64,000 nucleotides of DNA from Vulcanimicrobiales bacterium. Lineage in GTDB: Bacteria > Vulcanimicrobiota > Vulcanimicrobiia > Vulcanimicrobiales > Vulcanimicrobiaceae. Below the pieces are notes generated by a model. That model was not told where the DNA came from. It ran no database searches and saw nothing but the letters and a program-made list of their open reading frames with translations. The DNA lies in contig JBBQQR010000003.1 in the NCBI GenBank assembly GCA_038215615.1, positions 32,001 to 96,000 of the forward strand. Reading direction: 5' to 3'. The number at the start of each line of letters is the position of its first letter. Position 1 is the first letter of the stretch. The translations under genes and the position numbers were made by a program. Shown piece by piece: positions 1,901-18,340 of this stretch.

Positions 1901-2821
1901 ATGAAAAAACGACCAGGTAGGCCAACCCGCCCCACCATCGAGGGCGCCCGAGCGGTACACATCCGGCGCCGTCTCATTGCCTTGTTGCTGCACTCGTCGC
2001 TCTCGTTTGAGGATCTCGCAGAACTGCTCGCGCCATTGGAGCAGGTCGCGGATCTTGTAGCACCCCCTAATCGTTCACTCGGCCTATCGCTCGCAAGCAT
2101 CGTGACCGACATACAGTTGCGAAAAGTCCTAGATCCAAAGACGCGCCGTAAGGCCGCCACAGCACCCATAGACGCGGAACGCGGCATTCTGTACGACCTT
2201 ATTTGCGACAAACTAGCGATGGGCGCCGACAACCCCTTACACGTCGCTATTGGTTTGGCACTCAAGGACGTAGACGATGACGAGCCTGCGAATCGCAAGA
2301 GTGCCCTAAAGTTCATCGATCACTATAGCCGGGCCGCGCGCACCGCCGCCTCGACGGACGGGGACAATCCATTTCCAACTACTAACACGCAAAAAAAGCA
2401 ACTAGAAAAATGGGGCGGCATTAGCGAAGTGATGCTGTTCGTTTTGGCACCCGGCTATCTGCGGCGTTCACTAGAGGTCTACGCAAGGCGCCTTAGGCAT
2501 CACGCCCTTCGTGGGTTTGAGAAAGAGTTACGCACTAGTAAGCGCGACATCGTGCTGTCTCTCTCCGAAGCGATGCCGCGCGCACAAACGGGGCGGACGC
2601 AAAAAGTCCATTTGGAACAGGACCTTAGCCGCCTAGACCGGATCGCCGACCGCTTCGAGAAGACGAGCGGAACCCTCGCAAAACTGCGCCGCAAAGGCGA
2701 TCCAAACACGTCGCGCCCCACCTCCGAAGCAGAACTTGAAATCAAACGGTTCATTTTCGGCCGTGACGCGGACGGGCATCCTCACCCAGACCTCTTAACC
2801 TTAAAAAGGGAGACCTCATGA
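1901..2821 (+). CDS. Hypothetical protein in the repressor position of the element
   Basis: 306-aa ORF divergent from xis, ATGA overlap with integrase; N-terminal KKRPGRP; no family recognised. Confidence 0.7.
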   Translation: MKKRPGRPTRPTIEGARAVHIRRRLIALLLHSSLSFEDLAELLAPLEQVADLVAPPNRSLGLSLASIVTDIQLRKVLDPKTRRKAATAPIDAERGILYDLICDKLAMGADNPLHVAIGLALKDVDDDEPANRKSALKFIDHYSRAARTAASTDGDNPFPTTNTQKKQLEKWGGISEVMLFVLAPGYLRRSLEVYARRLRHHALRGFEKELRTSKRDIVLSLSEAMPRAQTGRTQKVHLEQDLSRLDRIADRFEKTSGTLAKLRRKGDPNTSRPTSEAELEIKRFIFGRDADGHPHPDLLTLKRETS

Positions 2822-3954
2822 ATCGCAAACGGCGCGGAAACAACGAAGGCTCGATCTATCAGCGCAAGGACGGCTGGTGGGTTGCGGCGGTATCTGGCGG
2901 CTACGACGAAACGGGCCGTCATCTGCGCCGATCCGTCTACGGTAAGTCGAAGGCGGAAGTCCGCGAAAAACTGCTCGCGCTGCAAAGTCAGGTGAAGTCG
3001 GCGGGACGCGTCAAACGCCCGAGCGTCGAAACTTTGACTTCCTTTTTGACGGCGTGGGTCGATCATGTCGTGAAGCCGAAAGTGCGCGAGACGACCTATC
3101 GCAGCTATGAGATGACCATGCGAGTCCACATCTTCCCGCACGTCGGCAAAGTGCGGCTCGACGAGTTCCGCGTCGCCGATGTCAGGCAGTTGCAGAGAAG
3201 GGTGGCGGCGACCGCTAGTCCGCGCACTCAGCGGCTCGTTCACACAGTTCTGCATAGCGCCTTGAAAGAGGCTGTGCGTGACGAAAGAATATCGCTAAAC
3301 CCCTGCGGCCGAGAACTAGTTGACGCGCCGAGGTACACCCCTCAGCAGATAAGGCCGCTAACGACTGAACAGGCGCAAGCCCTGCTCGATGCTGCGCGCG
3401 GGGACCGTTTAGAGGCCCTGTACGTTCTCGCCCTGACGACTGGAATGCGCTCCGGCGAACTGTTCGCGCTTCATTGGGAGGACGTGGATTTGAACGTCGG
3501 GTCGCTGTCTGTCCGGCGCTCGTTACAAAATATCAATGGAAAAACGCTGCTGGTCGAACCGAAGACCAGGGCTGGTAAACGCCGCATCGACCTTGCGTCT
3601 CTTGCGGTCGCGGCGCTTCGAGAGCATCGCAAGCGCCTTCTTGCTGAGGGCCTGGCGGCGTCCGCTCTCGTCTTTCCAAGCAGTTCGGGGTCGCCGCTTC
3701 AAAGCCGGAACGTTACCAGGCGCAGTTTTGAGCCGCTCCTGGCGAAGGCCGGACTGCCGCGGATCCGTTTCCACGACCTGCGGCACACCTTCGCGACGAC
3801 GATGCTCACCCAGGGCGTCCATCCGAAAGTCGTGCAAGAAATGCTCGGTCACTCAAAGATCGTGGTGACGTTGGATACCTATTCGCATTGCGTCCCGTCG
3901 ATGCAAAAAGAGGCCGCGGCCCGGCTCGATTCCATCTTCTCACGAATGGGCTAG
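2818..3954 (+). CDS. Tyrosine recombinase/integrase (ICEBs1/phage-type)
   Basis: N-terminal RRGNNEGSIYQRKDG arm-binding domain; catalytic R (TGMRSGE), HDLRH, LGHS, Y (TLDTYSH). Confidence 0.97.
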   Translation: MNRKRRGNNEGSIYQRKDGWWVAAVSGGYDETGRHLRRSVYGKSKAEVREKLLALQSQVKSAGRVKRPSVETLTSFLTAWVDHVVKPKVRETTYRSYEMTMRVHIFPHVGKVRLDEFRVADVRQLQRRVAATASPRTQRLVHTVLHSALKEAVRDERISLNPCGRELVDAPRYTPQQIRPLTTEQAQALLDAARGDRLEALYVLALTTGMRSGELFALHWEDVDLNVGSLSVRRSLQNINGKTLLVEPKTRAGKRRIDLASLAVAALREHRKRLLAEGLAASALVFPSSSGSPLQSRNVTRRSFEPLLAKAGLPRIRFHDLRHTFATTMLTQGVHPKVVQEMLGHSKIVVTLDTYSHCVPSMQKEAAARLDSIFSRMG

Positions 3955-9883: not shown

Positions 9884-10425
9884 CGGCGGGCCGGAGCCTT
9901 TTTCTTTCGCGATTTCAAGAAGTACACGAGCACATGTTTTTCCTCACGGAAGCCGACAAGACTCTTTGACTGCGCGGGATCCCGTAACGCTTCGACCGCG
10001 CACTCGACCAGTTCATCCTGCGCCACCGGATCCTCATCGGGATGTTCGTCGGGTACGGTGTTACGCACCAGCGCCGCTCCAAAGAGCTGCGCGAAGAGTC
10101 CGGTCAGCATGCCCAGTTCGTCTTTGGTGAAGGTATCGAGGTCGCGGCTCACATGCACGAAGCTCAGCGCCCGCTCGGATTCGCACTCCACGCTCAAGTC
10201 GCCGCCACCGCCCGAGAGTGCCTGGAAACCCTTGACATGCGCTTCGATCTCCTCGCCGATCGCGCGTTGAGTCTGCCGGTCCATCCGCTGCCCGATGGCA
10301 AAGGTGAACCGCACCATGCCCTCGCTGGGCATCGAGCGGATAGACGCAATCTCAGGATAGCGCACGAGCAGCGCGCACACCAAATTGACGGTATCGCTAT
10401 TCTCGACGGGCGGCCGGGCGGTCAT
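9880..10425 (-). CDS. Conserved hypothetical protein
   Basis: LLVRYPEIASI...LVGFREEKHVLVYF; GAAGGAAG SD; heads the ymdB operon. Confidence 0.75.
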   Translation of the reverse strand: MTARPPVENSDTVNLVCALLVRYPEIASIRSMPSEGMVRFTFAIGQRMDRQTQRAIGEEIEAHVKGFQALSGGGGDLSVECESERALSFVHVSRDLDTFTKDELGMLTGLFAQLFGAALVRNTVPDEHPDEDPVAQDELVECAVEALRDPAQSKSLVGFREEKHVLVYFLKSRKKKAPARR

Positions 10426-10593
10426 GATCGATGCTTCCTTCGTACCTGTCTTTGGGCTGTGAATCGCTGGGGGGTCCGGTCTCTTAGACATCCGCTCCAG
10501 AGCCCCCCTTTGCTATTCACGCCCTCTCCAACCAACAGCGAGGGGGGTCCGGTTGCCGGGGGGCCGCCACCGTCCCTCGCGAAGCCCCCAGCC

Positions 10594-11139
10594 GTGAGCA
10601 AACGCCTGCCGCTCTGGCTCGCCGCAGTCGTCCCATCGATGGCGGCCGGCCACGTCGCGGGCTACGCGCTATCGGGACTAAGCTCGGCCGACGGCCGGCA
10701 TGGCTGGCTCTCGCCCGCCCTTGAAGTCTGCGGAGCCGCGCTGATCGGCTTGGGCGCGCTCATCATCGCGAGCACCTTGCTGCGCGCCGGCGTCTTCCGT
10801 CGATCGCAGATCGAAAGCTCGGTGTTGGCGCTGGCGCCGCGGTTGGCGGCATCGCAGCTCGTGCTCTTCGTTGCGGCAGAGACATTCGAAGGGCGCAGCA
10901 TCACGCCGGCCGGCATCGCCACGCAGATCGTATCGGCGCTGCTCGCCGCGTATATGCTTTCGCTATTCAGCAGAATCATCGAACGCTGTATCGCCGGTGC
11001 CGCCGAAGCCGGCAGCTATCTCGACCGTCTTGCCGCGGTCACCGCGGCCTTCTCGCTCATCGAATCCGCGCCGCGATCCCTTGCGCTTTTCGCAAGTGCA
11101 GGCAACAGCCGTTTTCAGCGACCTCCTCCGTTCGCGTAG
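10594..11139 (+). CDS. Membrane leader protein with C-terminal RPPP (RAPP-like) motif
   Basis: GTG start; several hydrophobic segments, AAGHVAGY and GRHGW His motifs; ends RFQRPPPFA*. Confidence 0.75.
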   Translation: MSKRLPLWLAAVVPSMAAGHVAGYALSGLSSADGRHGWLSPALEVCGAALIGLGALIIASTLLRAGVFRRSQIESSVLALAPRLAASQLVLFVAAETFEGRSITPAGIATQIVSALLAAYMLSLFSRIIERCIAGAAEAGSYLDRLAAVTAAFSLIESAPRSLALFASAGNSRFQRPPPFA

Positions 11140-11171
11140 TCATTACGCTCTTGACTACACTCAAACGGAGG
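11125..11171 (+). promoter_or_regulatory. SD-sequestering hairpin (translational attenuator)
   Basis: CCTCCGTT (11125-32) pairs with AACGGAGG (11164-71); inner stem GTAGTCA (11136-42)/TGACTAC (11152-58). Confidence 0.7.
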
Positions 11172-11178
11172 TATTCGC

Positions 11179-12948
11179 GTGTTGCAACGCATTTTTGCAG
11201 CCGCAGTTCGCGCGACGTGCGCGACTGTGGCGATCACGGCAGCCCTCGCCGGCCGGGCTGAAGCCGTTCCCGTCTTTGCCAATGGGCAAGGCGTCTCGTG
11301 TCAAACCTGTCACACCACGTTCCCGGGCATGACGCGCTACGGCATGATGGTGATGATGACGAATTTTCAAATTCTCGACCGTCACTCTCAAGACCAAGCG
11401 CTGCCAATCGCAGTGCGTATGTACGTGGATTCGGTGCTCGGCACGGGAGATCAAAAGGGATACACGCAGCTCGGCGATCTCTCGCTGCTGGGCGGCGGTT
11501 TTCTCGGAAGAAACTTCACGTGGTACGGCGAGCAGCACATCGTCGATTCCGGCGTTATCGGCCAAACCGAACAGGTGTGGCTTTCCTGGAACGGCTTGTT
11601 CGGCGGCACCAACTCGCTGCAGGTCGGAAAATTCCACACGCCGTTCCCGTTCATGCCGGCGCACGCGTGGACGCCTTCAGGCTACCTCCTAGCATTACAA
11701 ACCACAGGGCAGAACGATTTCAATGCCGCTGAAGCGCGCTGGGGCGTTGCCTTTTCCGGCATGAGTAACGAATTCATGTACAACGCTTCGTACCTCACCG
11801 GAAGCGGTCCGACGGGCGAAGCGCTCAACTTCAACAAGAACTCGCATCCCCGCGCATACGACTTCAACGTCTCGTATGGCGGTATGCAGATTCCGTGGGA
11901 GCTGGGATTGGTGGCGATGCGCGGCGACGCGCCGGTGGTCGATCCGGACTCCGGCGATTTTCTCTTTAGCGATCAGTGGACGCGCCAGGGAGCCTATCTC
12001 TCGTATCAAGACAGCAAGTGGCACTTTCAAACGATGTACTATCGCGGAAACGACACACAGCCGGACGTCGATACCCTGAACACCACATCGAACGGCTTCT
12101 TCTTCGAAGCGGCCCGCGATTTCGCCAAAGACCACGTGCTGGTGCGGTACGACGTCGCCTCGAGCGATTCGCTCGACCGGCAATACCTGGTGGACGTTTC
12201 ACACAACTTCCAGCCGAATCTCGCGCTGATCGGTGAAGTCCGGATGGTGCCGGCGCAAAAACCGCAGATCATGTTTAGGCTTGCGTATGCCGGACCGTGG
12301 GAAAACGGACGGCGAATTCTTTCCAACGGACACGACGTCTCCACAAACTTCACAGCGCAGCCGCAGTTGCATCCTGCGCAAACGCTCCCGGGTGCCGTGG
12401 CTTCGCCCCTTCCCGCAACGCCGGCCGGCGGCGACGCAAACAATGGGGCGCAACTCGTGCAATCCAACGGCTGCGCGGGCTGTCACGGTGCGGGCCTGAA
12501 GGGCGGGCGAATCGGACCCGTGCTGTTCGGCATCGAACACCACATGTCGAACGATCAGATCGCGGACTTTATCATACATCCGCGCGCGCCGATGCCGAAC
12601 TTCGGTTTCAACACCGCGCAAGTCTCGGACATCGTAGCGTATCTCACGTCACTCGACGGCGGCATCAACAATACTGCGCCTGTCGTCACGTTCTCGCCGG
12701 CGGCGCCGACCGATTTCGCAACGATTAGCGTGACGTTCCCGGGAACTCCGCCGGAAAGCGTCCGGGTTCTTCCGGTCATGCGCATGGGAACCAGCACGCA
12801 CCACACGGCGATGGTCGAATTGCAACCGCTGCCGTCGGATCCGCACACGTTCACCGGCCGCGTCGCATTTTCGATGGGCGGCCCCTGGATCGTACACATC
12901 CAATACGGCCGGCAGGAGTTGGACGTCCCGCTCAACATCGGGACGTAA
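11179..12948 (+). CDS. Cyc2-like cytochrome c-porin fused to a second cytochrome c and a YtkA/FixH-like domain
   Basis: Signal peptide then AVPVFANGQGVSCQTCHTTFPGMTRYG; aromatic beta-rich middle; GCAGCHG...GPVL...MPNF cyt c; C-terminal FSMGGPW. Confidence 0.75.
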   Translation: MLQRIFAAAVRATCATVAITAALAGRAEAVPVFANGQGVSCQTCHTTFPGMTRYGMMVMMTNFQILDRHSQDQALPIAVRMYVDSVLGTGDQKGYTQLGDLSLLGGGFLGRNFTWYGEQHIVDSGVIGQTEQVWLSWNGLFGGTNSLQVGKFHTPFPFMPAHAWTPSGYLLALQTTGQNDFNAAEARWGVAFSGMSNEFMYNASYLTGSGPTGEALNFNKNSHPRAYDFNVSYGGMQIPWELGLVAMRGDAPVVDPDSGDFLFSDQWTRQGAYLSYQDSKWHFQTMYYRGNDTQPDVDTLNTTSNGFFFEAARDFAKDHVLVRYDVASSDSLDRQYLVDVSHNFQPNLALIGEVRMVPAQKPQIMFRLAYAGPWENGRRILSNGHDVSTNFTAQPQLHPAQTLPGAVASPLPATPAGGDANNGAQLVQSNGCAGCHGAGLKGGRIGPVLFGIEHHMSNDQIADFIIHPRAPMPNFGFNTAQVSDIVAYLTSLDGGINNTAPVVTFSPAAPTDFATISVTFPGTPPESVRVLPVMRMGTSTHHTAMVELQPLPSDPHTFTGRVAFSMGGPWIVHIQYGRQELDVPLNIGT

Positions 12949-14363
12949 TGCGGCGGTCGTCCTTCCTGATGGCGAGCGGCGGCGCGATGATCGTCGCCGC
13001 CTTGCCGCCGCTTTCCGAACGCGGGCGTGCGAGCGAGTTGGTGCAGTACACGCTCACTGCCGGCCCCGTTCGTTTCTCGCCGGTTCCCGGCCTCAATTTT
13101 GCCGGTCTCGGCTATAACGGCACTATTCCCGGTCCGCTTTTGCGCGTGGTTCACGGGCAGAAGCTGCGCGCGAGGTTCATCAACCAAACCGGACAAGGCT
13201 CGACCATTCACTGGCACGGCATGATCTTGCCGAACAAAATGGATGGATCGGAAGGGGTGACGCAGCCCGCCGTTCCGCCGGGCGGATCGTTTCTCTACGA
13301 GTTTTCACCCGAACCGCCCGGCACGCGCTGGTATCACGATCACGTCAGCGATGGTTTGCTGCGCGGACTCTTCGGCATGATTATCGTTGAGGATCCGCGC
13401 GACCAGCGCCCCGATGCGGAATTTGTGCTCGTTTTCCACGACGTTCCGAAAATGGCCACGGTTCAACCAGCGATGATGGGAGTGGGCAACGGCCCGATGA
13501 CCGATCCAACCGGTTCGCCCGAGCTCATGCAAATGTCCGACGACAAGATGGGCGACGAGGTCGCGTTCAGCGCGCATTGCATCAACGGCGCTTCATATCC
13601 GGATACCAAACGGCTGGCCGTAAAAGTCGGCCAGCACGTGCGTCTGCGCATACTCAACGCCAACCCGACGCAAACGCGCTACGTCCGGCTTGCCGGACAC
13701 CGCCTGATCGTCACGCATAGCGACGGCAATCCGCTTCCGCGGCCCGTGGAAGTCGACGCGCTTCGCGTGGGAGTCGCAGAACGGTACGACGCATGGTTCG
13801 AAGTCAGTGAGCCCGGCGCATGGCTGCTGCAAGGCCTTTCGAGCGACCCGCTCGCGTTCGAGCAGGCCGCCGTGATGCATACTCCGGGAATGGAAAACGC
13901 TCCGCCGCTCAGCAGCCCGCAATCGCTCGAAGGCGTGGACTATTTCACGTACGTGAAAGCCGGGGGAGCGGGAACCGCGACGCCGGCGCAGCGCGGGAAA
14001 CAGTACGATTTTATTTTGGACGACGGAAAATACGGCAGTTCGCGCTGGACGATCAACGGAAAGACCTATCCGAATACGCCAAGGATCGACGTGCACCGCA
14101 ACGATCTCGTCACCGTCCGTTTCACCAATAAGACCGATATGGACCATCCGATGCACCTGCACGGCCACGTTTTCGAAGTGACCGAAGTTGACGGGATCCC
14201 GCTCGCGCGGCCCCTGCCGAAAGACACCTCGCTGGTGCGTGGGAACGGAGGGACGCTGAGCTGGCGTTTTCGTGCGGACTCTCCCCCCGGCCGCTGGCTG
14301 CTGCACTGCCACAACGCGATCCACATGATGGACGGCATGATGACGCTGGTGCAGTACGGATGA
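12948..14363 (+). CDS. Multicopper oxidase, Tat-exported
   Basis: MRRSSFL Tat motif; IHWHG, WYHDH, HPMHLHGH, HCHNAIHMMDGM. Confidence 0.95.
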   Translation: MRRSSFLMASGGAMIVAALPPLSERGRASELVQYTLTAGPVRFSPVPGLNFAGLGYNGTIPGPLLRVVHGQKLRARFINQTGQGSTIHWHGMILPNKMDGSEGVTQPAVPPGGSFLYEFSPEPPGTRWYHDHVSDGLLRGLFGMIIVEDPRDQRPDAEFVLVFHDVPKMATVQPAMMGVGNGPMTDPTGSPELMQMSDDKMGDEVAFSAHCINGASYPDTKRLAVKVGQHVRLRILNANPTQTRYVRLAGHRLIVTHSDGNPLPRPVEVDALRVGVAERYDAWFEVSEPGAWLLQGLSSDPLAFEQAAVMHTPGMENAPPLSSPQSLEGVDYFTYVKAGGAGTATPAQRGKQYDFILDDGKYGSSRWTINGKTYPNTPRIDVHRNDLVTVRFTNKTDMDHPMHLHGHVFEVTEVDGIPLARPLPKDTSLVRGNGGTLSWRFRADSPPGRWLLHCHNAIHMMDGMMTLVQYG

Positions 14364-15469
14364 TGATTCTTCAGGCGCTGGAGCTGGCTGCGGGCATGTT
14401 TTGGCAAGTCGCCTGGAGTCTGGTGCTCGGTTTCTTTCTTTCGGCCGCGATTCAAACGCTGGTCTCGAAAGAGCGCATGACCGCGCAGCTCGGCCGCAAC
14501 GGCGTGCGCGAAATCGCGCTCGCAACCGTTTACGGTGCGGCGAGCTCTTCCTGTTCGTACGCCGCCGCGGCGATGAGCAAGTCACTCTTCAAAAAGGGCG
14601 CCGGATTTATTCCCTCGCTCGCGTTTCTCTTCGCATCGACCAATCTCGTCGTCGAGCTCGGCATCATTTTGTACCTGCTGATGGGATGGCAGTTCACTGC
14701 AGCGGAGTGGATCGGGGGCGTTCTGCTGATCGCGATCATGGCGCTGATCGTCAAAGCGACGTATCCCGCGGCGTTGATCGCGGAAGCTCGCCGTCATCTA
14801 GACGAGGCCACCGGCGAGGACGAAACCGTCGCCGGTGAAACATTTTGGGACAAACTGCGTAATCCGCAGACCCCGGTCACGATTGCGCAGACATTCGTGA
14901 TGGACGTTTCCATGCTGTGGAAAGATTTGGCAGCCGGGTTCTTGATCGCCGGCGCACTTGGCATTTTCGTGCCCGCCGGCGTGTGGGGCACATTCTTTCT
15001 GCATGGCGCGCCCGCGGGAGTTCAAATCGTCGCCAACGCGATCGCCGGACCGCTGGTGGCGATCGTTTCGTTCGTCTGCTCGATCGGCAACGTTCCGATG
15101 GCGGCGATCCTATGGGGGAGCGGGATCAGTTTCGGCGGCGTCTTGAGTTTCTTGTTCGCCGATCTGATCGTGTTGCCGCTGCTCGACGTCTACCGGCGCT
15201 ATTATGGCTTGAAGATGGCCGCCTACATCGGCGCCGTCTTTTTCGTGACGATGGTCGCGGCTGGGATCATCATGCAGTACGTCTTCGCAGCGTTCGGGGC
15301 GGTCCCGCATCCCAATCCGCATATCCGCACCGAACTCTCGCTCTTTGCGATCAACTACACGTTTTGGCTGAACCTCGCACTTGGCGCCCTGGCGATCGCG
15401 CTGTGGTACGTGAACGTCAAACATCCGATGTCGCACAGCTGCCCCGCTCACGAGGGCCACGCCCACTAA
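14360..15469 (+). CDS. Permease (ArsP/DUF318-like), probable metal transporter
   Basis: SSSCSYAA, FVCSIGNVP, multiple TMs, His-rich tail HPMSHSCPAHEGHAH. Confidence 0.85.
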   Translation: MMILQALELAAGMFWQVAWSLVLGFFLSAAIQTLVSKERMTAQLGRNGVREIALATVYGAASSSCSYAAAAMSKSLFKKGAGFIPSLAFLFASTNLVVELGIILYLLMGWQFTAAEWIGGVLLIAIMALIVKATYPAALIAEARRHLDEATGEDETVAGETFWDKLRNPQTPVTIAQTFVMDVSMLWKDLAAGFLIAGALGIFVPAGVWGTFFLHGAPAGVQIVANAIAGPLVAIVSFVCSIGNVPMAAILWGSGISFGGVLSFLFADLIVLPLLDVYRRYYGLKMAAYIGAVFFVTMVAAGIIMQYVFAAFGAVPHPNPHIRTELSLFAINYTFWLNLALGALAIALWYVNVKHPMSHSCPAHEGHAH

Positions 15470-15486: not shown

Positions 15487-16515
15487 ATGCACTTTCTCGG
15501 ACGCGGACGCGTCGTGGTAACTGGCGGAGCCGGATTTATCGGCAGCGCACTGGTCTGGGCGCTCAATCTGCGCGGTGTCGACGACATCCTTATCGTCGAC
15601 AGACTCGACCAATCCGAAAAGTGGAAAAATCTCGTCCCGCTGCGCTACCGGGACTACATGGACGCAAGCGATTTCGAATCCGCGCTCCTTACGCGGCCTG
15701 GCGATTTTCGGGAAGTAAGTACGCTGCTGCATTTAGGCGCTTGCTCGTCGACCACCGAAACGGACACGGCGTTTTTGATGCGCAACAACTACGAGTACAC
15801 CAAGCACCTGGCACAGTGGGCGATCGAACACGACGTCCGTTTCGTGTACGCTTCTTCCGCAGCAACCTACGGCGGACTCGAACGCAACCTGCGCGACGAC
15901 TCCGAACTCGACGCGTTGCGGCCGCTGAACATGTACGCGTATTCGAAGCATCGCTTCGATCTATTCGCACGCGACAACGGCTGGCTCGACAAAATCACGG
16001 GCCTGAAATACTTCAACGTCTTCGGACCGAACGAGCAGCACAAAGGCGAGATGCGCAGCTTGGTCGACAAGGCTTTTCACCAAATCCAAGAGACGGGCAC
16101 CATACGTCTATTCAAAAGTTACCGCAGCGAGTACCGCGACGGCGAACAGCGGCGAGACTTTCTTTACGTCAAGGACGCGGCGGAGATGACCCTGCACGTG
16201 GCCGACCGCGAAGCTTTCGGACTGTTTAACCTCGGTTCGGGGCAAGCGCACACGTGGCTCGATCTGGTGCGCCCGATTTTCCGTTCACTTCGCGTGCCCG
16301 AGCGCATCGAGTTCGTCGACATGCCGGCCCAGCTGCGCGACAAGTACCAATACTGCACGTGCGCCACGATCGACCGGCTGCGTGCCGCCGGCTACGAGGG
16401 GCCCGTGACGGAACTCGATTGCGCCGTTGACGACTACGTTTCCAATTACTTGCTGCCCGGCCGCGGCCTCGACCCGCAGGCCGAATCGTCCGCCGCACTT
16501 AATCGCAGCGCATGA
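15487..16515 (+). CDS. hldD: ADP-L-glycero-D-manno-heptose 6-epimerase
   Basis: VTGGAGFIGS, HLGACSSTTE, YASSAATYG, PLNMYAYSK, YFNVFGPNEQHKG. Confidence 0.93.
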   Translation: MHFLGRGRVVVTGGAGFIGSALVWALNLRGVDDILIVDRLDQSEKWKNLVPLRYRDYMDASDFESALLTRPGDFREVSTLLHLGACSSTTETDTAFLMRNNYEYTKHLAQWAIEHDVRFVYASSAATYGGLERNLRDDSELDALRPLNMYAYSKHRFDLFARDNGWLDKITGLKYFNVFGPNEQHKGEMRSLVDKAFHQIQETGTIRLFKSYRSEYRDGEQRRDFLYVKDAAEMTLHVADREAFGLFNLGSGQAHTWLDLVRPIFRSLRVPERIEFVDMPAQLRDKYQYCTCATIDRLRAAGYEGPVTELDCAVDDYVSNYLLPGRGLDPQAESSAALNRSA

Positions 16516-17270
16516 GTTCTCGCGCAGATCGCCGCCGTCACCAGCGTGGCGGCTCGGGGCCGCCGGCGCGCCGCGATCCCATGGTCCCGGTGTACATTGG
16601 CCTCGCCGTCTTCATCGTTCTGGTATTCGTGGGCTTCGGCATCATGTCGGCCTTGCAAAATTCAAAGCGCAACGCCCAGCAAAGTTTCGTGACAGCAACT
16701 CCGACGCCGGGACCCAACGCAAGTTCCAAGCCGATCAAGCTCAAAGATGGCGGAGCCGTCGGCGCGCGAGTCTTTCCCACGCCCGACCCCGCGCATGGGT
16801 TCATCGGCGACACCATCGTGGGCGGCCGTAGCCTGCCCGTCGACAACATTCCATGCCAAAGTTCAGAGGCAGCCGTCCTGCACGTGCACACGCACCTCGC
16901 TGTCTTCAATCACGGCGTTCAAGTGCAAGTGGCCCCGTATCTGGGCATGGCGTCGCTCTCGCCAACGCAGGGCTGTCTGTATTGGATCCACACGCACGAT
17001 CCGAGCGGCATCATTCACATCGAAGCGGGCAGCATCGTTTCGCCCAACGGCGGAAACTACACGCTCGGAAACTTCTTCGACATCTGGGGCCAGCCGCTGA
17101 GCCGCACACAACTCGGCCCGTTCAAAGGCCCGGTCACGGCTTTCGTCAACGGATCGCAGTACAACGGCGACCTCGCATCGATTCCGCTCCGCGCCCACCA
17201 ACAGATCGTTTTAGAGGCCGGATCGCCGATCGTGCCTCCGCCGAATTACACGTTCCCCTTCGGGGACTAA
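16512..17270 (+). CDS. Membrane-anchored hypothetical protein with HxH motifs
   Basis: Single TM; HVHTHL, CLYWIHTHDPSGIIHIE, TLGNFFDIWGQ. Confidence 0.8.
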   Translation: MSSRADRRRHQRGGSGPPARRDPMVPVYIGLAVFIVLVFVGFGIMSALQNSKRNAQQSFVTATPTPGPNASSKPIKLKDGGAVGARVFPTPDPAHGFIGDTIVGGRSLPVDNIPCQSSEAAVLHVHTHLAVFNHGVQVQVAPYLGMASLSPTQGCLYWIHTHDPSGIIHIEAGSIVSPNGGNYTLGNFFDIWGQPLSRTQLGPFKGPVTAFVNGSQYNGDLASIPLRAHQQIVLEAGSPIVPPPNYTFPFGD

Positions 17271-17392
17271 GAGGGCACCATCCGCCATTCCCGCAAAATT
17301 TGCGACTTTTTAGAACTCGACAGGATGTCGACTTCAAAACTTTGTTTTCTCGAAAAAGCGCCTAAGTAGCAAAATTACACGGAGGTAATTTT

Positions 17393-18340
17393 GTGAACGT
17401 TTTTGTGGGAATGGTGGTTGGCGCACTCTTAACCATCATTCCGGTGCACGGTACCGTCCTTACGGTTACTTCGACGAACACCGCGATTGTAAGGACCGAA
17501 GCCGTGACCGGGATGCTGCCGTCGACGACACGTGCGTACCGGATCGAACCGCAGCTCGTTCTGAGCGCCGGCGCCGGCATCGACGGGTTCGTCGATAATC
17601 GGCCGCGCCCGTGGCGCCTGTACGATGCCGCATTGGCCGGCCCGTTTGTCGCCGGCCTCCCGCAGACCGGAAAAGTTATCGCATTCGATATCGGCTCGAA
17701 GCTGCCGCACACGCAGCTGGTCGATCAGCGCGGTAAGTTGGTTGACCTGGCGGCGTTCCACGGCGTATCGCTGACCAGTTTTATTTTCACGCGCTGCCGA
17801 GACGAGTGCCCACTCGTCGCGGCAAAATTTGTGGAGATGCAGAAGCAGCTCGATACGAGCCGGTTCCATCTCTTCTTGATCACCATAGATCCCATGTACG
17901 ATTCGCCGTTGGTGCTTGCGCGCTATGCGCGCCAATTCCGCATGAACCCGGCTTCGATCTCCGTGCTGACCGGGCAGCCGCACGATATCGCGACCTTACT
18001 CGACCAATTCGGCATCACGTCGCTCCAAAATGGCGATGCCACCTTCATTCATAGCGACAAAGTGTACTTGGCGTCACCGGACGGACGCGTCGCGCAGATC
18101 TTACAGACGACCGGTTTCACGCCGGGTTCGCTCGCGGCTGCGGCCCGGCATCTGGCAGGCATGGCGAGCAGCCCGTTCGGACGCTTTCAATTGTGGCTGG
18201 TCGCCGGGGTCACTGCTCTCTGCGGCGGAAACCAGTTTGCCGGAATCGTCGCGCTCGAGACCGTCTTGTTTTTGATTATCGCCGGAATCTCGTTCGTGAC
18301 GCTTGGGTGGGTGGTCCGAAGGATATGGGGGAGTACGTAA
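17393..18340 (+). CDS. SCO1/SenC family copper chaperone with N-terminal extra domain and C-terminal TM
   Basis: FIFTRCRDECP (CxxxC), ITIDPMYD, IHSD; GGAGG SD. Confidence 0.88.
   Translation: MNVFVGMVVGALLTIIPVHGTVLTVTSTNTAIVRTEAVTGMLPSTTRAYRIEPQLVLSAGAGIDGFVDNRPRPWRLYDAALAGPFVAGLPQTGKVIAFDIGSKLPHTQLVDQRGKLVDLAAFHGVSLTSFIFTRCRDECPLVAAKFVEMQKQLDTSRFHLFLITIDPMYDSPLVLARYARQFRMNPASISVLTGQPHDIATLLDQFGITSLQNGDATFIHSDKVYLASPDGRVAQILQTTGFTPGSLAAAARHLAGMASSPFGRFQLWLVAGVTALCGGNQFAGIVALETVLFLIIAGISFVTLGWVVRRIWGST

Follow-up and report, generated by a model that had tools for sequence, protein, structure and literature searches.

Cyc2-type cytochrome-porins are the main genetic marker for inferring microbial iron oxidation from genomes, and the hand-off of electrons by these porins to the periplasm has so far been modelled only. 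Cyc2, as found in Acidithiobacillus ferrooxidans and, as Cyc2PV-1, in Mariprofundus ferrooxydans, is defined by a signal peptide, a single CxxCH haem site, the motif AxPxFAR[Q/K][T/Y] upstream of it, PxL four residues downstream, a 16-strand porin and a length of at least 365 amino acids (aa), and sequences without PxFAR[QK][TY] were discarded in the screen that used this definition (Keffer et al. 2021, PMC8406198; this and the other publications are cited here for the available parts of their text). The family is still monohaem in the available part of a 2026 review. Electrons also cross the outer membrane via haem in a barrel in MtoAB, PioAB and MtrCAB, which are 26-strand barrels around separate decahaem proteins (PMC8406198). 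In this report, a gene at positions 11179..12948 of the forward strand of a Vulcanimicrobiales genome fragment is compared with these systems and with copper-handling systems of the PcoABCD/CopABCD, CrdA and YtkA/CtaK kinds. It encodes a Cyc2-like haem-porin continued by a class I cytochrome c and a probable copper-binding beta-sandwich. The gene lies in a stretch of 64,000 nucleotides (contig JBBQQR010000003.1 of assembly GCA_038215615.1, positions 32,001 to 96,000), called the window below, which has a G+C content of ~60% throughout. What appears to be new is that the cytochrome c-sandwich module and a coupled, twin-arginine translocation (Tat) exported multicopper oxidase form a constant unit, to which the barrel is repeatedly fused or from which it is split or deleted.

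Cytochrome-porins themselves are an already known kind of protein. The literature on Cyc2, fused cytochrome-porins, Eremiobacterota and multicopper oxidases gave, in its available parts, no account of a Cyc2-like porin that is extended at its C-terminus by cytochrome or copper domains or that has a fixed multicopper oxidase as its partner; File S2 of PMC8357290 (a Cyc2 tree) lay outside this search and may contain a member of the clade. Neither the fusion nor the porin-oxidase link is described in the available parts of PMC10654088, PMC13741234, PMC10732223 and PMC9040806. Cyc2-like genes of metagenome-assembled genomes (MAGs) of Eremiobacterota have been taken as evidence of iron oxidation in PMC8357290 and PMC13594681, and the available parts of these two sources do not describe the present architecture. 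Also new here are the stand-alone module-oxidase pairs, the deletion remnants, the oxidase tree, the match to CrdA with aligned methionines, the link between a Met-rich haem segment and the oxidase, and two paralogues in the host.

Architecture of the fusion protein and its relation to Cyc2

The listed open reading frame (ORF) at 11179..12948 (+) has a GTG start and a translation of 589 aa. The original prediction, made from the letters alone, had described a four-part Cyc2-like fusion comprising a haem-porin, a second cytochrome c and a YtkA-like domain, with a Pro/Ala linker ahead of the cytochrome c, and all of the sequence elements that it quoted were located in the translation. The features of the gene are as follows.

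11167-11171, forward strand: ribosome-binding site GGAGG, 7 nucleotides before the GTG of the fusion gene
11179..11262, forward strand: Sec signal peptide, residues 1-28, ending AEA ahead of VPVF (from the translation)
11263..11394, forward strand: N-terminal haem segment, residues 29-72, with AVPVFANGQ, 3 residues, CQTCH, PGM and a Met-rich stretch
11395..12321, forward strand: predicted 16-strand porin-like beta-barrel, residues ~73-381 (AlphaFold2 model, Foldseek, hhalign columns 12-360)
12322..12432, forward strand: Pro/Ala-rich flexible linker, residues ~382-418, of varying length among orthologues (translation; model confidence below 50 at residues 389-416)
12433..12654, forward strand: class I cytochrome c domain, residues 419-492 (PF13442 and PF00034 above cut-off)
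12667..12945, forward strand: C-terminal immunoglobulin (Ig)-like beta-sandwich, residues 497-589, YtkA/FixH/CrdA-like, with invariant M534, M536, M566 and W570

The start of the mature protein, AVPVFANGQGVSCQTCHTTFPGMTRYG, occupies residues 29-55 and includes the first haem site, CQTCH (residues 41-45, 11299-11313), while the Met-rich stretch GMTRYGMMVMMTNF occupies residues 50-63 (11326-11367). The signal peptide forms a hydrophobic helix at residues 2-22 in the AlphaFold2 (AF2) model, and A29 is nearly invariant in an alignment of 35 orthologues, to which the statements below on invariance in the haem segment and the cytochrome c refer. The Pfam search suggested with the original prediction found the expected Cytochrome_CBB3 (PF13442) at 43.9 bits against a cut-off of 27, together with PF00034 at 34.7 bits against 21.3; the second haem site, CAGCH, is at residues 432-436 (12472-12486), the Met ligand is in PMP at residues 471-473, and C432, C435, H436 and M472 are invariant. 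The sequence FSMGGPW, near the end of the sandwich, is at residues 564-570. No family was found by Pfam and NCBIfam for residues 1-400 of the fusion protein or for seven relatives, and a PDB sequence search with the fusion protein returned weak cytochrome c matches and no solved relative. An assembly or annotation artefact, by which two genes had been fused in error, was considered and rejected, as the frame is unbroken and the same continuous architecture is present in all 30 genome loci taken as best full-length matches and in the best 120 of 210 protein clusters, at 53-89% identity.

The AF2 model, built from the 35 orthologues, has a mean predicted local distance difference test (pLDDT) score of 65. 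It places 16 beta strands between residues 77 and 372, at a pLDDT of ~60-86, followed by a helical cytochrome domain and a confident C-terminal sandwich, with low confidence at residues 22-71 and 389-416. Foldseek against the PDB matched the barrel to 16-strand general porins, with 219 matches at E<=0.001, headed by OmpU (6ehb, E 8.2e-10, template-modelling score on the target 0.64) and Omp32 (2fgq, E 1.9e-9) and with OmpF, OmpC and PorB next. The membrane barrel assumed in the original prediction, for which AlphaFold and Foldseek had been named as the check, is thus borne out by both. With 16 strands, both ends of the barrel would face the periplasm, so that the linker, the cytochrome c and the sandwich, forming the C-terminal half of the protein, would be periplasmic according to standard porin topology; the same argument from the termini has been made for Cyc2 (PMC8406198). 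Annotation of the barrel relatives is sparse: one listed Atlas cluster carries Porin_O_P on 20% of its members, and the cluster names are just “hypothetical”, “cytochrome c” and “cytochrome c oxidase subunit 2”.

Like Cyc2, the fusion protein has a signal peptide followed by one CxxCH near the cleavage site, the AxPxFA spacing, a Pro four residues past the haem site, a 16-strand barrel with periplasmic termini as modelled, and a sufficient length (589 aa against at least 365). The Cyc2 N-terminal pattern claimed from the letters therefore stands for AxPxFA, CxxCH and the placement of the Pro, and does not stand for the rest: in AVPVFANGQ the R[QK][TY] of the motif is replaced by NGQ, with N35, G36 and Q37 nearly invariant, and in PGM the Leu of PxL is replaced by the invariant M51. 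There are also two CxxCH sites, at residues 41-45 and 432-436, where the published rule allows one. Because of these three departures (NGQ, PGM and two haems), the protein is read as a divergent relative within the Cyc2 superfamily and not as a member of Cyc2. It differs from Cyc2 further in the Met-rich stretch behind the haem, in ~210 additional C-terminal residues comprising the linker, the second haem domain and the copper-type sandwich, and in its partner, which is a multicopper oxidase where the partners of Cyc2 are Cyc1, rusticyanin or a haem-copper oxidase. From MtoAB, PioAB and MtrCAB it differs as a 16-strand barrel with two monohaem units in one chain.

The homology that had been proposed is, by contrast with the membership, supported for Cyc2-type cytochrome-porins. 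When the alignment of 35 orthologues was compared with a reference alignment of eight relatives satisfying the published motif, hhalign gave a probability of 99.7% and an E-value of 1.3e-25 over 342 columns that take in both the haem segment and the barrel; an alignment also holding intermediates gave E 2.7e-55, which is partly circular. When 1.84 billion representatives were searched with residues 1-398, 201 relatives were obtained at E<=0.001; stand-alone proteins of 370-450 aa are frequent among these, and the N-termini of the relatives are graded from AVPVFANGQGVSCxxCHTTFPGM in the fusion through AMPPFAQAYGxxCxxCHTxVPALN to AIPAFARKYxTSCxTCHxxFPKLN. The 80 motif-bearing relative loci obtained from the genome-contig scan included none from Mariprofundus, Gallionella or Acidithiobacillus. 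As judged from these comparisons, the haem-porin part is homologous to Cyc2-type cytochrome-porins.

A scan of 30 barrel relatives with Pfam found one or two C-terminal cytochrome c domains in six, a cupredoxin in one, the BBP2 porin family in one, a chemoreceptor in one and no family in 21. The cupredoxin fusion (P0139, 513 aa, Baltobacteraceae) is annotated in one source as cytochrome c oxidase subunit 2, and in the chemoreceptor fusion (P0254, 1043 aa) a methyl-accepting chemoreceptor (HAMP and MCPsignal) is joined to a C-terminal Cyc2-like porin. A sister class (L124, L125 and L155) is trihaem and combines a porin with a pair of cytochrome c domains in frames 638-671 aa long; FPGMTNYGMMVMM is retained, the gene that comes next encodes a multicopper oxidase of ~30% identity, no sandwich was detected in these three, and in L124 a 49%-identical ArsP permease is nearby. 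The view that a periplasmic acceptor has been fused onto the porin fits the six relatives with cytochrome c and the one with cupredoxin among the 30, and also the split forms described below.

The cytochrome c-sandwich module and its oxidase partner

The gene directly downstream of the fusion gene encodes the following protein.

12948..14363, forward strand: three-domain multicopper oxidase, 471 aa, with the twin-arginine leader MRRSSFL (Pfam, ligand motifs)

Its start overlaps the stop of the fusion gene in TAATG and, as read from this overlap, the two genes are translationally coupled. A multicopper oxidase directly follows the fusion gene in 28 of the 30 genome loci (one of the 28, L108, is from the unpublished genome G177); the exceptions are L089, which ends at the fusion gene, and L095, without an oxidase within 1.5 kb. 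Among 28 metagenome loci, the oxidase directly follows in all 22 that reach past the fusion gene, the other six ending before or just after it. The earlier note on the fusion gene had not registered the oxidase next to it as a dedicated partner that persists without the barrel.

A search of 301 genomes of the phylum, nine of them unpublished, gave matches in 229, with 201 of 206 in family f1, three of three in f2, 22 of 22 in f3 and almost none in other families. Many of these matches span residues ~410-588 only and lie in open frames of ~200-240 aa. In all 11 loci taken, such a stand-alone cytochrome c-sandwich gene is directly upstream of an orthologous oxidase, and the oxidases are 56-72% identical. 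In three further loci (L121, L122 and L128), the porin is a separate gene ahead of the cytochrome c-sandwich gene, which is then followed by the oxidase; in L128, the split cytochrome c-sandwich gene has its own signal peptide. Two of the stand-alone modules look like products of an internal deletion of the barrel from a fused ancestor, because L112 (3995-4654, reverse strand) retains the fusion-type signal peptide and APVFA start and L113 (3995-4609, reverse strand) has a haem-segment remnant, HATFPGMTPY, joined directly to the linker. A maximum likelihood tree of the oxidases was built with 50 rows, L108 and partial sequences being left out. Fused, split and stand-alone forms are interleaved in this tree, on well-supported branches requiring at least three changes for “fused” and at least five for “stand-alone”, and L112 and L113 are nested among the fused forms.

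From gene order and the tree, the constant unit is the cytochrome c-sandwich with the multicopper oxidase, and the barrel appears to have been repeatedly attached, detached or lost. The cytochrome c-sandwich is, on the same comparisons, the fixed partner of the Tat-exported oxidase. Two side observations were made on these loci. In L130 (5025-7040, forward strand), a porin-cytochrome c fusion in a 514-aa frame with two CxxCH sites precedes a separate cytochrome c-sandwich gene and then the oxidase. In the cluster of L128 and P0121, an identical member is labelled Candidatus Dormibacteraeota in one source and its oxidase groups with Eremiobacterota rows in the tree, which points to a mis-binned contig or a transfer.

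The locus resembles the rus operon of A. ferrooxidans (Cyc2, Cyc1, rusticyanin and an aa3 oxidase) in combining an outer-membrane cytochrome-porin, periplasmic carriers and an enzyme that reduces oxygen (O2), and the likeness extends to fusion relatives joined to cytochrome c or cupredoxin and to one paralogue beside COX genes. It differs in the covalent tether of its carrier and in having a soluble multicopper oxidase as O2 reductase, and no proton-motive gain is expected. The host has two further haem-porins. One (L123:3755-5365, reverse strand, contig C22 of the host genome G000) is a protein of 536 aa with a Met/Pro-rich linker to a cytochrome c, encoded divergently from DUF302, COX2, COX1 and a membrane-anchored cytochrome c, and is a candidate for the respiratory counterpart of the oxidase-linked fusion. 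The other (L158:1447-2577, reverse strand, contig C5 of G000) is a stand-alone protein of 376 aa that is nearer to the canonical motif (FAQRY...PEL); the genes ahead of it are for a cupredoxin-like lipoprotein (2567-3025) and an SCO-like thioredoxin-fold protein (3022-3555), both assigned by reading of the sequence, and a response regulator and a histidine kinase come after it. Each pore of the host is thus encoded with periplasmic electron carriers, and this is the strongest indirect argument that the barrel haem would exchange electrons with the periplasm.

These paralogues bear on a reading of the fusion as an energy-conserving Fe(II) oxidase like canonical Cyc2, in which the barrel haem would oxidise dissolved Fe2+ and the tethered cytochrome c would feed the respiratory chain through a haem-copper oxidase or bc complex, the neighbouring multicopper oxidase being unrelated or an auxiliary ferroxidase. 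The homology to Cyc2-type proteins is in its favour, a cytochrome c fusion mirrors the pairing of Cyc2 with Cyc1, and the Eremiobacterota MAGs whose Cyc2-like genes were read as iron oxidation came from acid mine drainage and tailings (PMC8357290, PMC13594681). The link to the multicopper oxidase is, however, near-universal, translationally coupled and kept even where the barrel is missing, the strict Cyc2 motif is not present, and the separate porin-cytochrome c fusion beside the COX genes would suit a respiratory role better, so that Fe(II) respiration through the fusion is considered improbable.

Copper-related features and the proposed electron relay

Features suggestive of copper are found in the haem segment, the sandwich and the oxidase. 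The stretch after the first haem is PGMTRYGMMVMMTNF, in which M51, M56, M59 and M60 are invariant in all 35 sequences. When loci with four or more Met among the 22 residues that follow CxxCH were classed as Met-rich, the oxidase was present in 51 Met-rich loci and missing from six, five of which are cut by a contig end, while among loci without a Met-rich stretch it was present in none and missing from 83.

The sandwich modelled alone (residues 497-589) has a pLDDT of 93.9. A structural comparison with 48,161 PDB chains ranked CrdA (9ll2), a copper protein of Helicobacter pylori, first, with a Z-score of 10.4, a root-mean-square deviation of 2.3 and 88 of 93 residues aligned; CopC (5icu) had a Z-score of 8.3, and Foldseek returned generic Ig folds such as PD-1 and nothing more specific. 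Counted along a profile alignment that is itself not significant, M536, M566 and W570 align with Met69, Met99 and a Trp of CrdA, and Met69 and Met99 of CrdA belong to a Met cluster proposed to bind Cu(I) (PMC9182242). As for the YtkA assignment in the original prediction, 31 of 33 family members match YtkA (PF13115) at E<=1, the best at 5e-6, and ten of the 33 also match FixH. The fusion protein itself matches YtkA at E 0.053 as a whole, and its sandwich alone stays under the Pfam cut-off. YtkA-domain proteins have been implicated in copper delivery to CuA, and YtkA/CtaK of Bacillus subtilis is likewise an extracytoplasmic Ig-like domain tied to copper delivery (PMC13344008), whereas the present sandwich is joined to a cytochrome c and has a multicopper oxidase, not a CuA oxidase, as its partner. 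The sandwich is a probable copper-binding domain of the YtkA/CrdA kind.

The oxidase matches Cu-oxidase_3 (PF07732), Cu-oxidase (PF00394) and Cu-oxidase_2 (PF07731), all above cut-off, and has all four ligand motifs (HWH, HDH, HxHxH and HCHxxxHxxxxM). It also has a conserved Met-rich loop at residues ~170-205 (AM.G....PM.DP.GS.E...M...D[KR]MGDE), and its scores are far under the equivalog cut-offs for CopA (181.7 against 478.95) and CueO (123.3 against 525). Taken together, the Met-rich haem segment, the Met3-Trp domain and the Met-rich loop of the oxidase are circumstantial support for Cu(I) as a possible substrate, at which the original prediction had hinted.

Tentatively, and with a likelihood falling somewhat short of even, a relay is proposed in which electrons from Cu(I) or Fe(II) as the reduced metal at the pore would reach the oxidase and O2 by way of the two haems. 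A reduced metal ion would be oxidised at or inside the pore by the barrel haem, with Cu(I) favoured because of the Met-rich haem segment, the Met3-Trp site and the Met-rich oxidase loop, and Fe(II) as the alternative. The electron would then pass from the barrel haem to the tethered class I cytochrome c and on to the type-1 copper of the multicopper oxidase, which would reduce O2 to water in the periplasm; the sandwich would either hold Cu(I) for oxidation or dock the module on the oxidase. The flow of electrons from the first haem to the second, the oxidase as their sink and the identity of the metal are all steps that we infer. With a soluble oxidase as the electron sink, the relay would be a protective or metal-conditioning device and not energy-conserving respiration.

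The following points weigh against this relay. The haem segment has a pLDDT below 50, so the position of the haem is not fixed by the model, and the NGQ of this segment departs from the Cyc2 motif. The Met-rich forms make up one clade or two sub-clades, so that the 51 to 0 association with the oxidase represents very few independent events. The match of the sandwich alone to YtkA (E 0.0021, 19.1 bits) is under the cut-off of 25.9; the next structural match after CrdA is an unrelated Ig fold with a Z-score of 9.6, a lead for CrdA of just 0.8; and in a PDB profile search with the sandwich CrdA was joint first at E 0.16, so that the link by sequence alone is not significant. The cytochrome-sandwich and oxidase persist in many genomes without an adjacent barrel, which makes the barrel dispensable for that pair. 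As a rule, multicopper oxidases draw their electrons from small substrates without an intermediary, and they are not known to need a cytochrome donor.

A more specific form of the relay is an outer-membrane cuprous oxidase, in which Cu(I) would be captured and oxidised at the Met-lined haem segment before it entered the cell and the electron would be wired through the tethered cytochrome c and the copper-binding adaptor to the periplasmic oxidase and then to O2. Though compatible with the evidence, this form is considered unlikely. If true, it would mean that the hardware of extracellular electron transfer has been repurposed for copper defence and that the oxidase has gained a protein electron donor.

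Neighbouring genes, host and implications

The other genes of interest around the fusion gene and its oxidase are as follows.

10594..11139, forward strand: small membrane protein of ~181 aa, start codon uncertain, conserved directly upstream of the fusion gene in most related loci
14360..15469, forward strand: ArsP_1-family permease with a His-rich tail (PF03773, 207 bits)
17393-18340, forward strand: SCO1/SenC copper chaperone, 315 aa, 4.4 kb downstream

The ~181-aa upstream protein is the C-terminal half (residues ~185-363) of a longer, spurious-looking ORF at 10042..11139; it has no Pfam match, and its nearest Atlas clusters are 183-aa hypothetical proteins of Vulcanimicrobiota. The start of the permease overlaps the stop of the oxidase in ATGA. 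The permease matches the SO_0444 Cu/Zn efflux family weakly (57 bits, cut-off 300), and it is downstream in five of the 28 metagenome loci, linked in close relatives only. The third gene downstream of the fusion gene belongs to the NAD-dependent epimerase/dehydratase family. The SCO1/SenC gene is preceded by a gene for an unannotated 252-aa protein with a transmembrane segment, and the pair spans 16512-18340 (forward strand), 3.5-5 kb past the cluster. On the opposite strand, the upstream genes are housekeeping genes (SpoVS, YmdB, S-adenosylmethionine synthetase and S-adenosylhomocysteine hydrolase). A second gene with a multicopper-oxidase domain is located in the window at ~51550 on the reverse strand (G000:C3:83550-83882), in a 395-aa open frame, and the host genome has one ORF with a CopC domain and four oxidase loci.

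This neighbourhood invites comparison with copper resistance systems. In a Pco/Cop-like reading, the sandwich would capture Cu(I) in the periplasm, like PcoC, CopC and CrdA, and feed an oxidase that oxidises Cu(I) directly, the barrel would be a copper channel in the role of PcoB, and the haems would be accessory, for example in electron buffering. The parts run parallel to PcoA, PcoB, PcoC and PcoD, in that PcoABCD/CopABCD likewise combine a multicopper oxidase, an outer-membrane barrel and a Met-rich periplasmic beta-sandwich, to which close relatives of the present locus add the permease with its His-rich tail. CrdA as best structural match, with its proposed Cu(I) methionines aligned to invariant ones, the Z-score of CopC, the Met-rich loop of the oxidase and the SCO1/SenC gene downstream also speak for it, as does the result for CopB/PcoB (PF05275), which had no match in the whole genome, estimated to be 100% complete. 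On the other hand, this family had no match at E<=0.1 in the fusion protein either, and the barrel is homologous to cytochrome-porins and bears haem. The locus has an inserted cytochrome c, both of its haem sites (C41/C44/H45 and C432/C435/H436/M472) are (nearly) invariant, which argues for a core redox role, the permease is restricted to the closest relatives, and the oxidase falls below the CopA and CueO cut-offs. Copper resistance of this kind is regarded as doubtful, with a chance that is appreciable all the same.

The copper features could also serve acquisition. The haem-porin would then reduce external Cu(II) to Cu(I), a Met-lined pore would pass Cu(I) inward, and the YtkA-like domain would load the Tat-exported apo-oxidase, as proposed for CtaK/YtkA at CuA, with electrons from the periplasmic cytochrome pool. 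This would account for three Met-rich elements and for a module that is constant beside the oxidase, and it draws on the part in CuA copper delivery reported for YtkA-domain proteins (PMC13344008), but a chaperone role leaves the constant cytochrome c-sandwich fusion unexplained and no uptake transporter is conserved in the cluster across the 28 metagenome loci; metallation is held to be quite unlikely. A role of the oxidase on Mn(II) or on phenolic or humic substrates, with the dihaem fusion as an auxiliary electron shuttle or substrate porin, is rated as very unlikely. Multicopper oxidases do include Mn(II) oxidases and laccases (PMC10732223 names MnxG, McoA and MoxA), a part for Cyc2 in the Mn(II) oxidation of Manganitrophaceae has been suggested (PMC9040806), and the hosts are from soil, peat and sediment, yet nothing characteristic of Mn or phenol oxidases was found, and the Met-rich elements speak for a soft metal, for instance Cu(I), and not for Mn(II).

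The host assembly comprises 2.21 Mb in 54 contigs and is 100% complete by marker estimate, and the named members among the best 120 of the 210 clusters are Candidatus Rubrimentiphilum, Baltobacteraceae and Vulcanimicrobiaceae, all Eremiobacterota. No RNA run was listed as containing the stretch; of three listed runs of one sample and study, one contains it, a DNA run that may come from the source sample. Genes for Omp85/BamA, for a protein of cytochrome c assembly and for TatC are present in the genome, and the envelope of the phylum's one cultured member is of the typical Gram-negative type, its outer membrane being covered by lipopolysaccharide (PMC9758169). A monoderm host is ruled out by the Omp85/BamA protein and this diderm cultured relative, and the same genes and relative make an outer-membrane barrel, haem attachment and Tat export plausible in the host.

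For the Cyc2-type porins at large, the porin-cytochrome c fusion, together with the sister forms carrying two cytochromes or a cupredoxin, provides a “Rosetta stone” argument for the periplasmic hand-off. The strict coupling to a multicopper oxidase and the copper-type domain mean that at least this clade should not be counted automatically as evidence of iron oxidation, as has been done for MAGs of Eremiobacterota (PMC8357290, PMC13594681). The fusion and its oxidase suggest a possible route for electrons from metals at the cell surface to O2. If the relay is true, it would be a new, non-respiratory route of metal oxidation at the cell surface, in a phylum that is widespread in soil and peat and hardly represented in culture, and it would give multicopper oxidases a protein redox partner.

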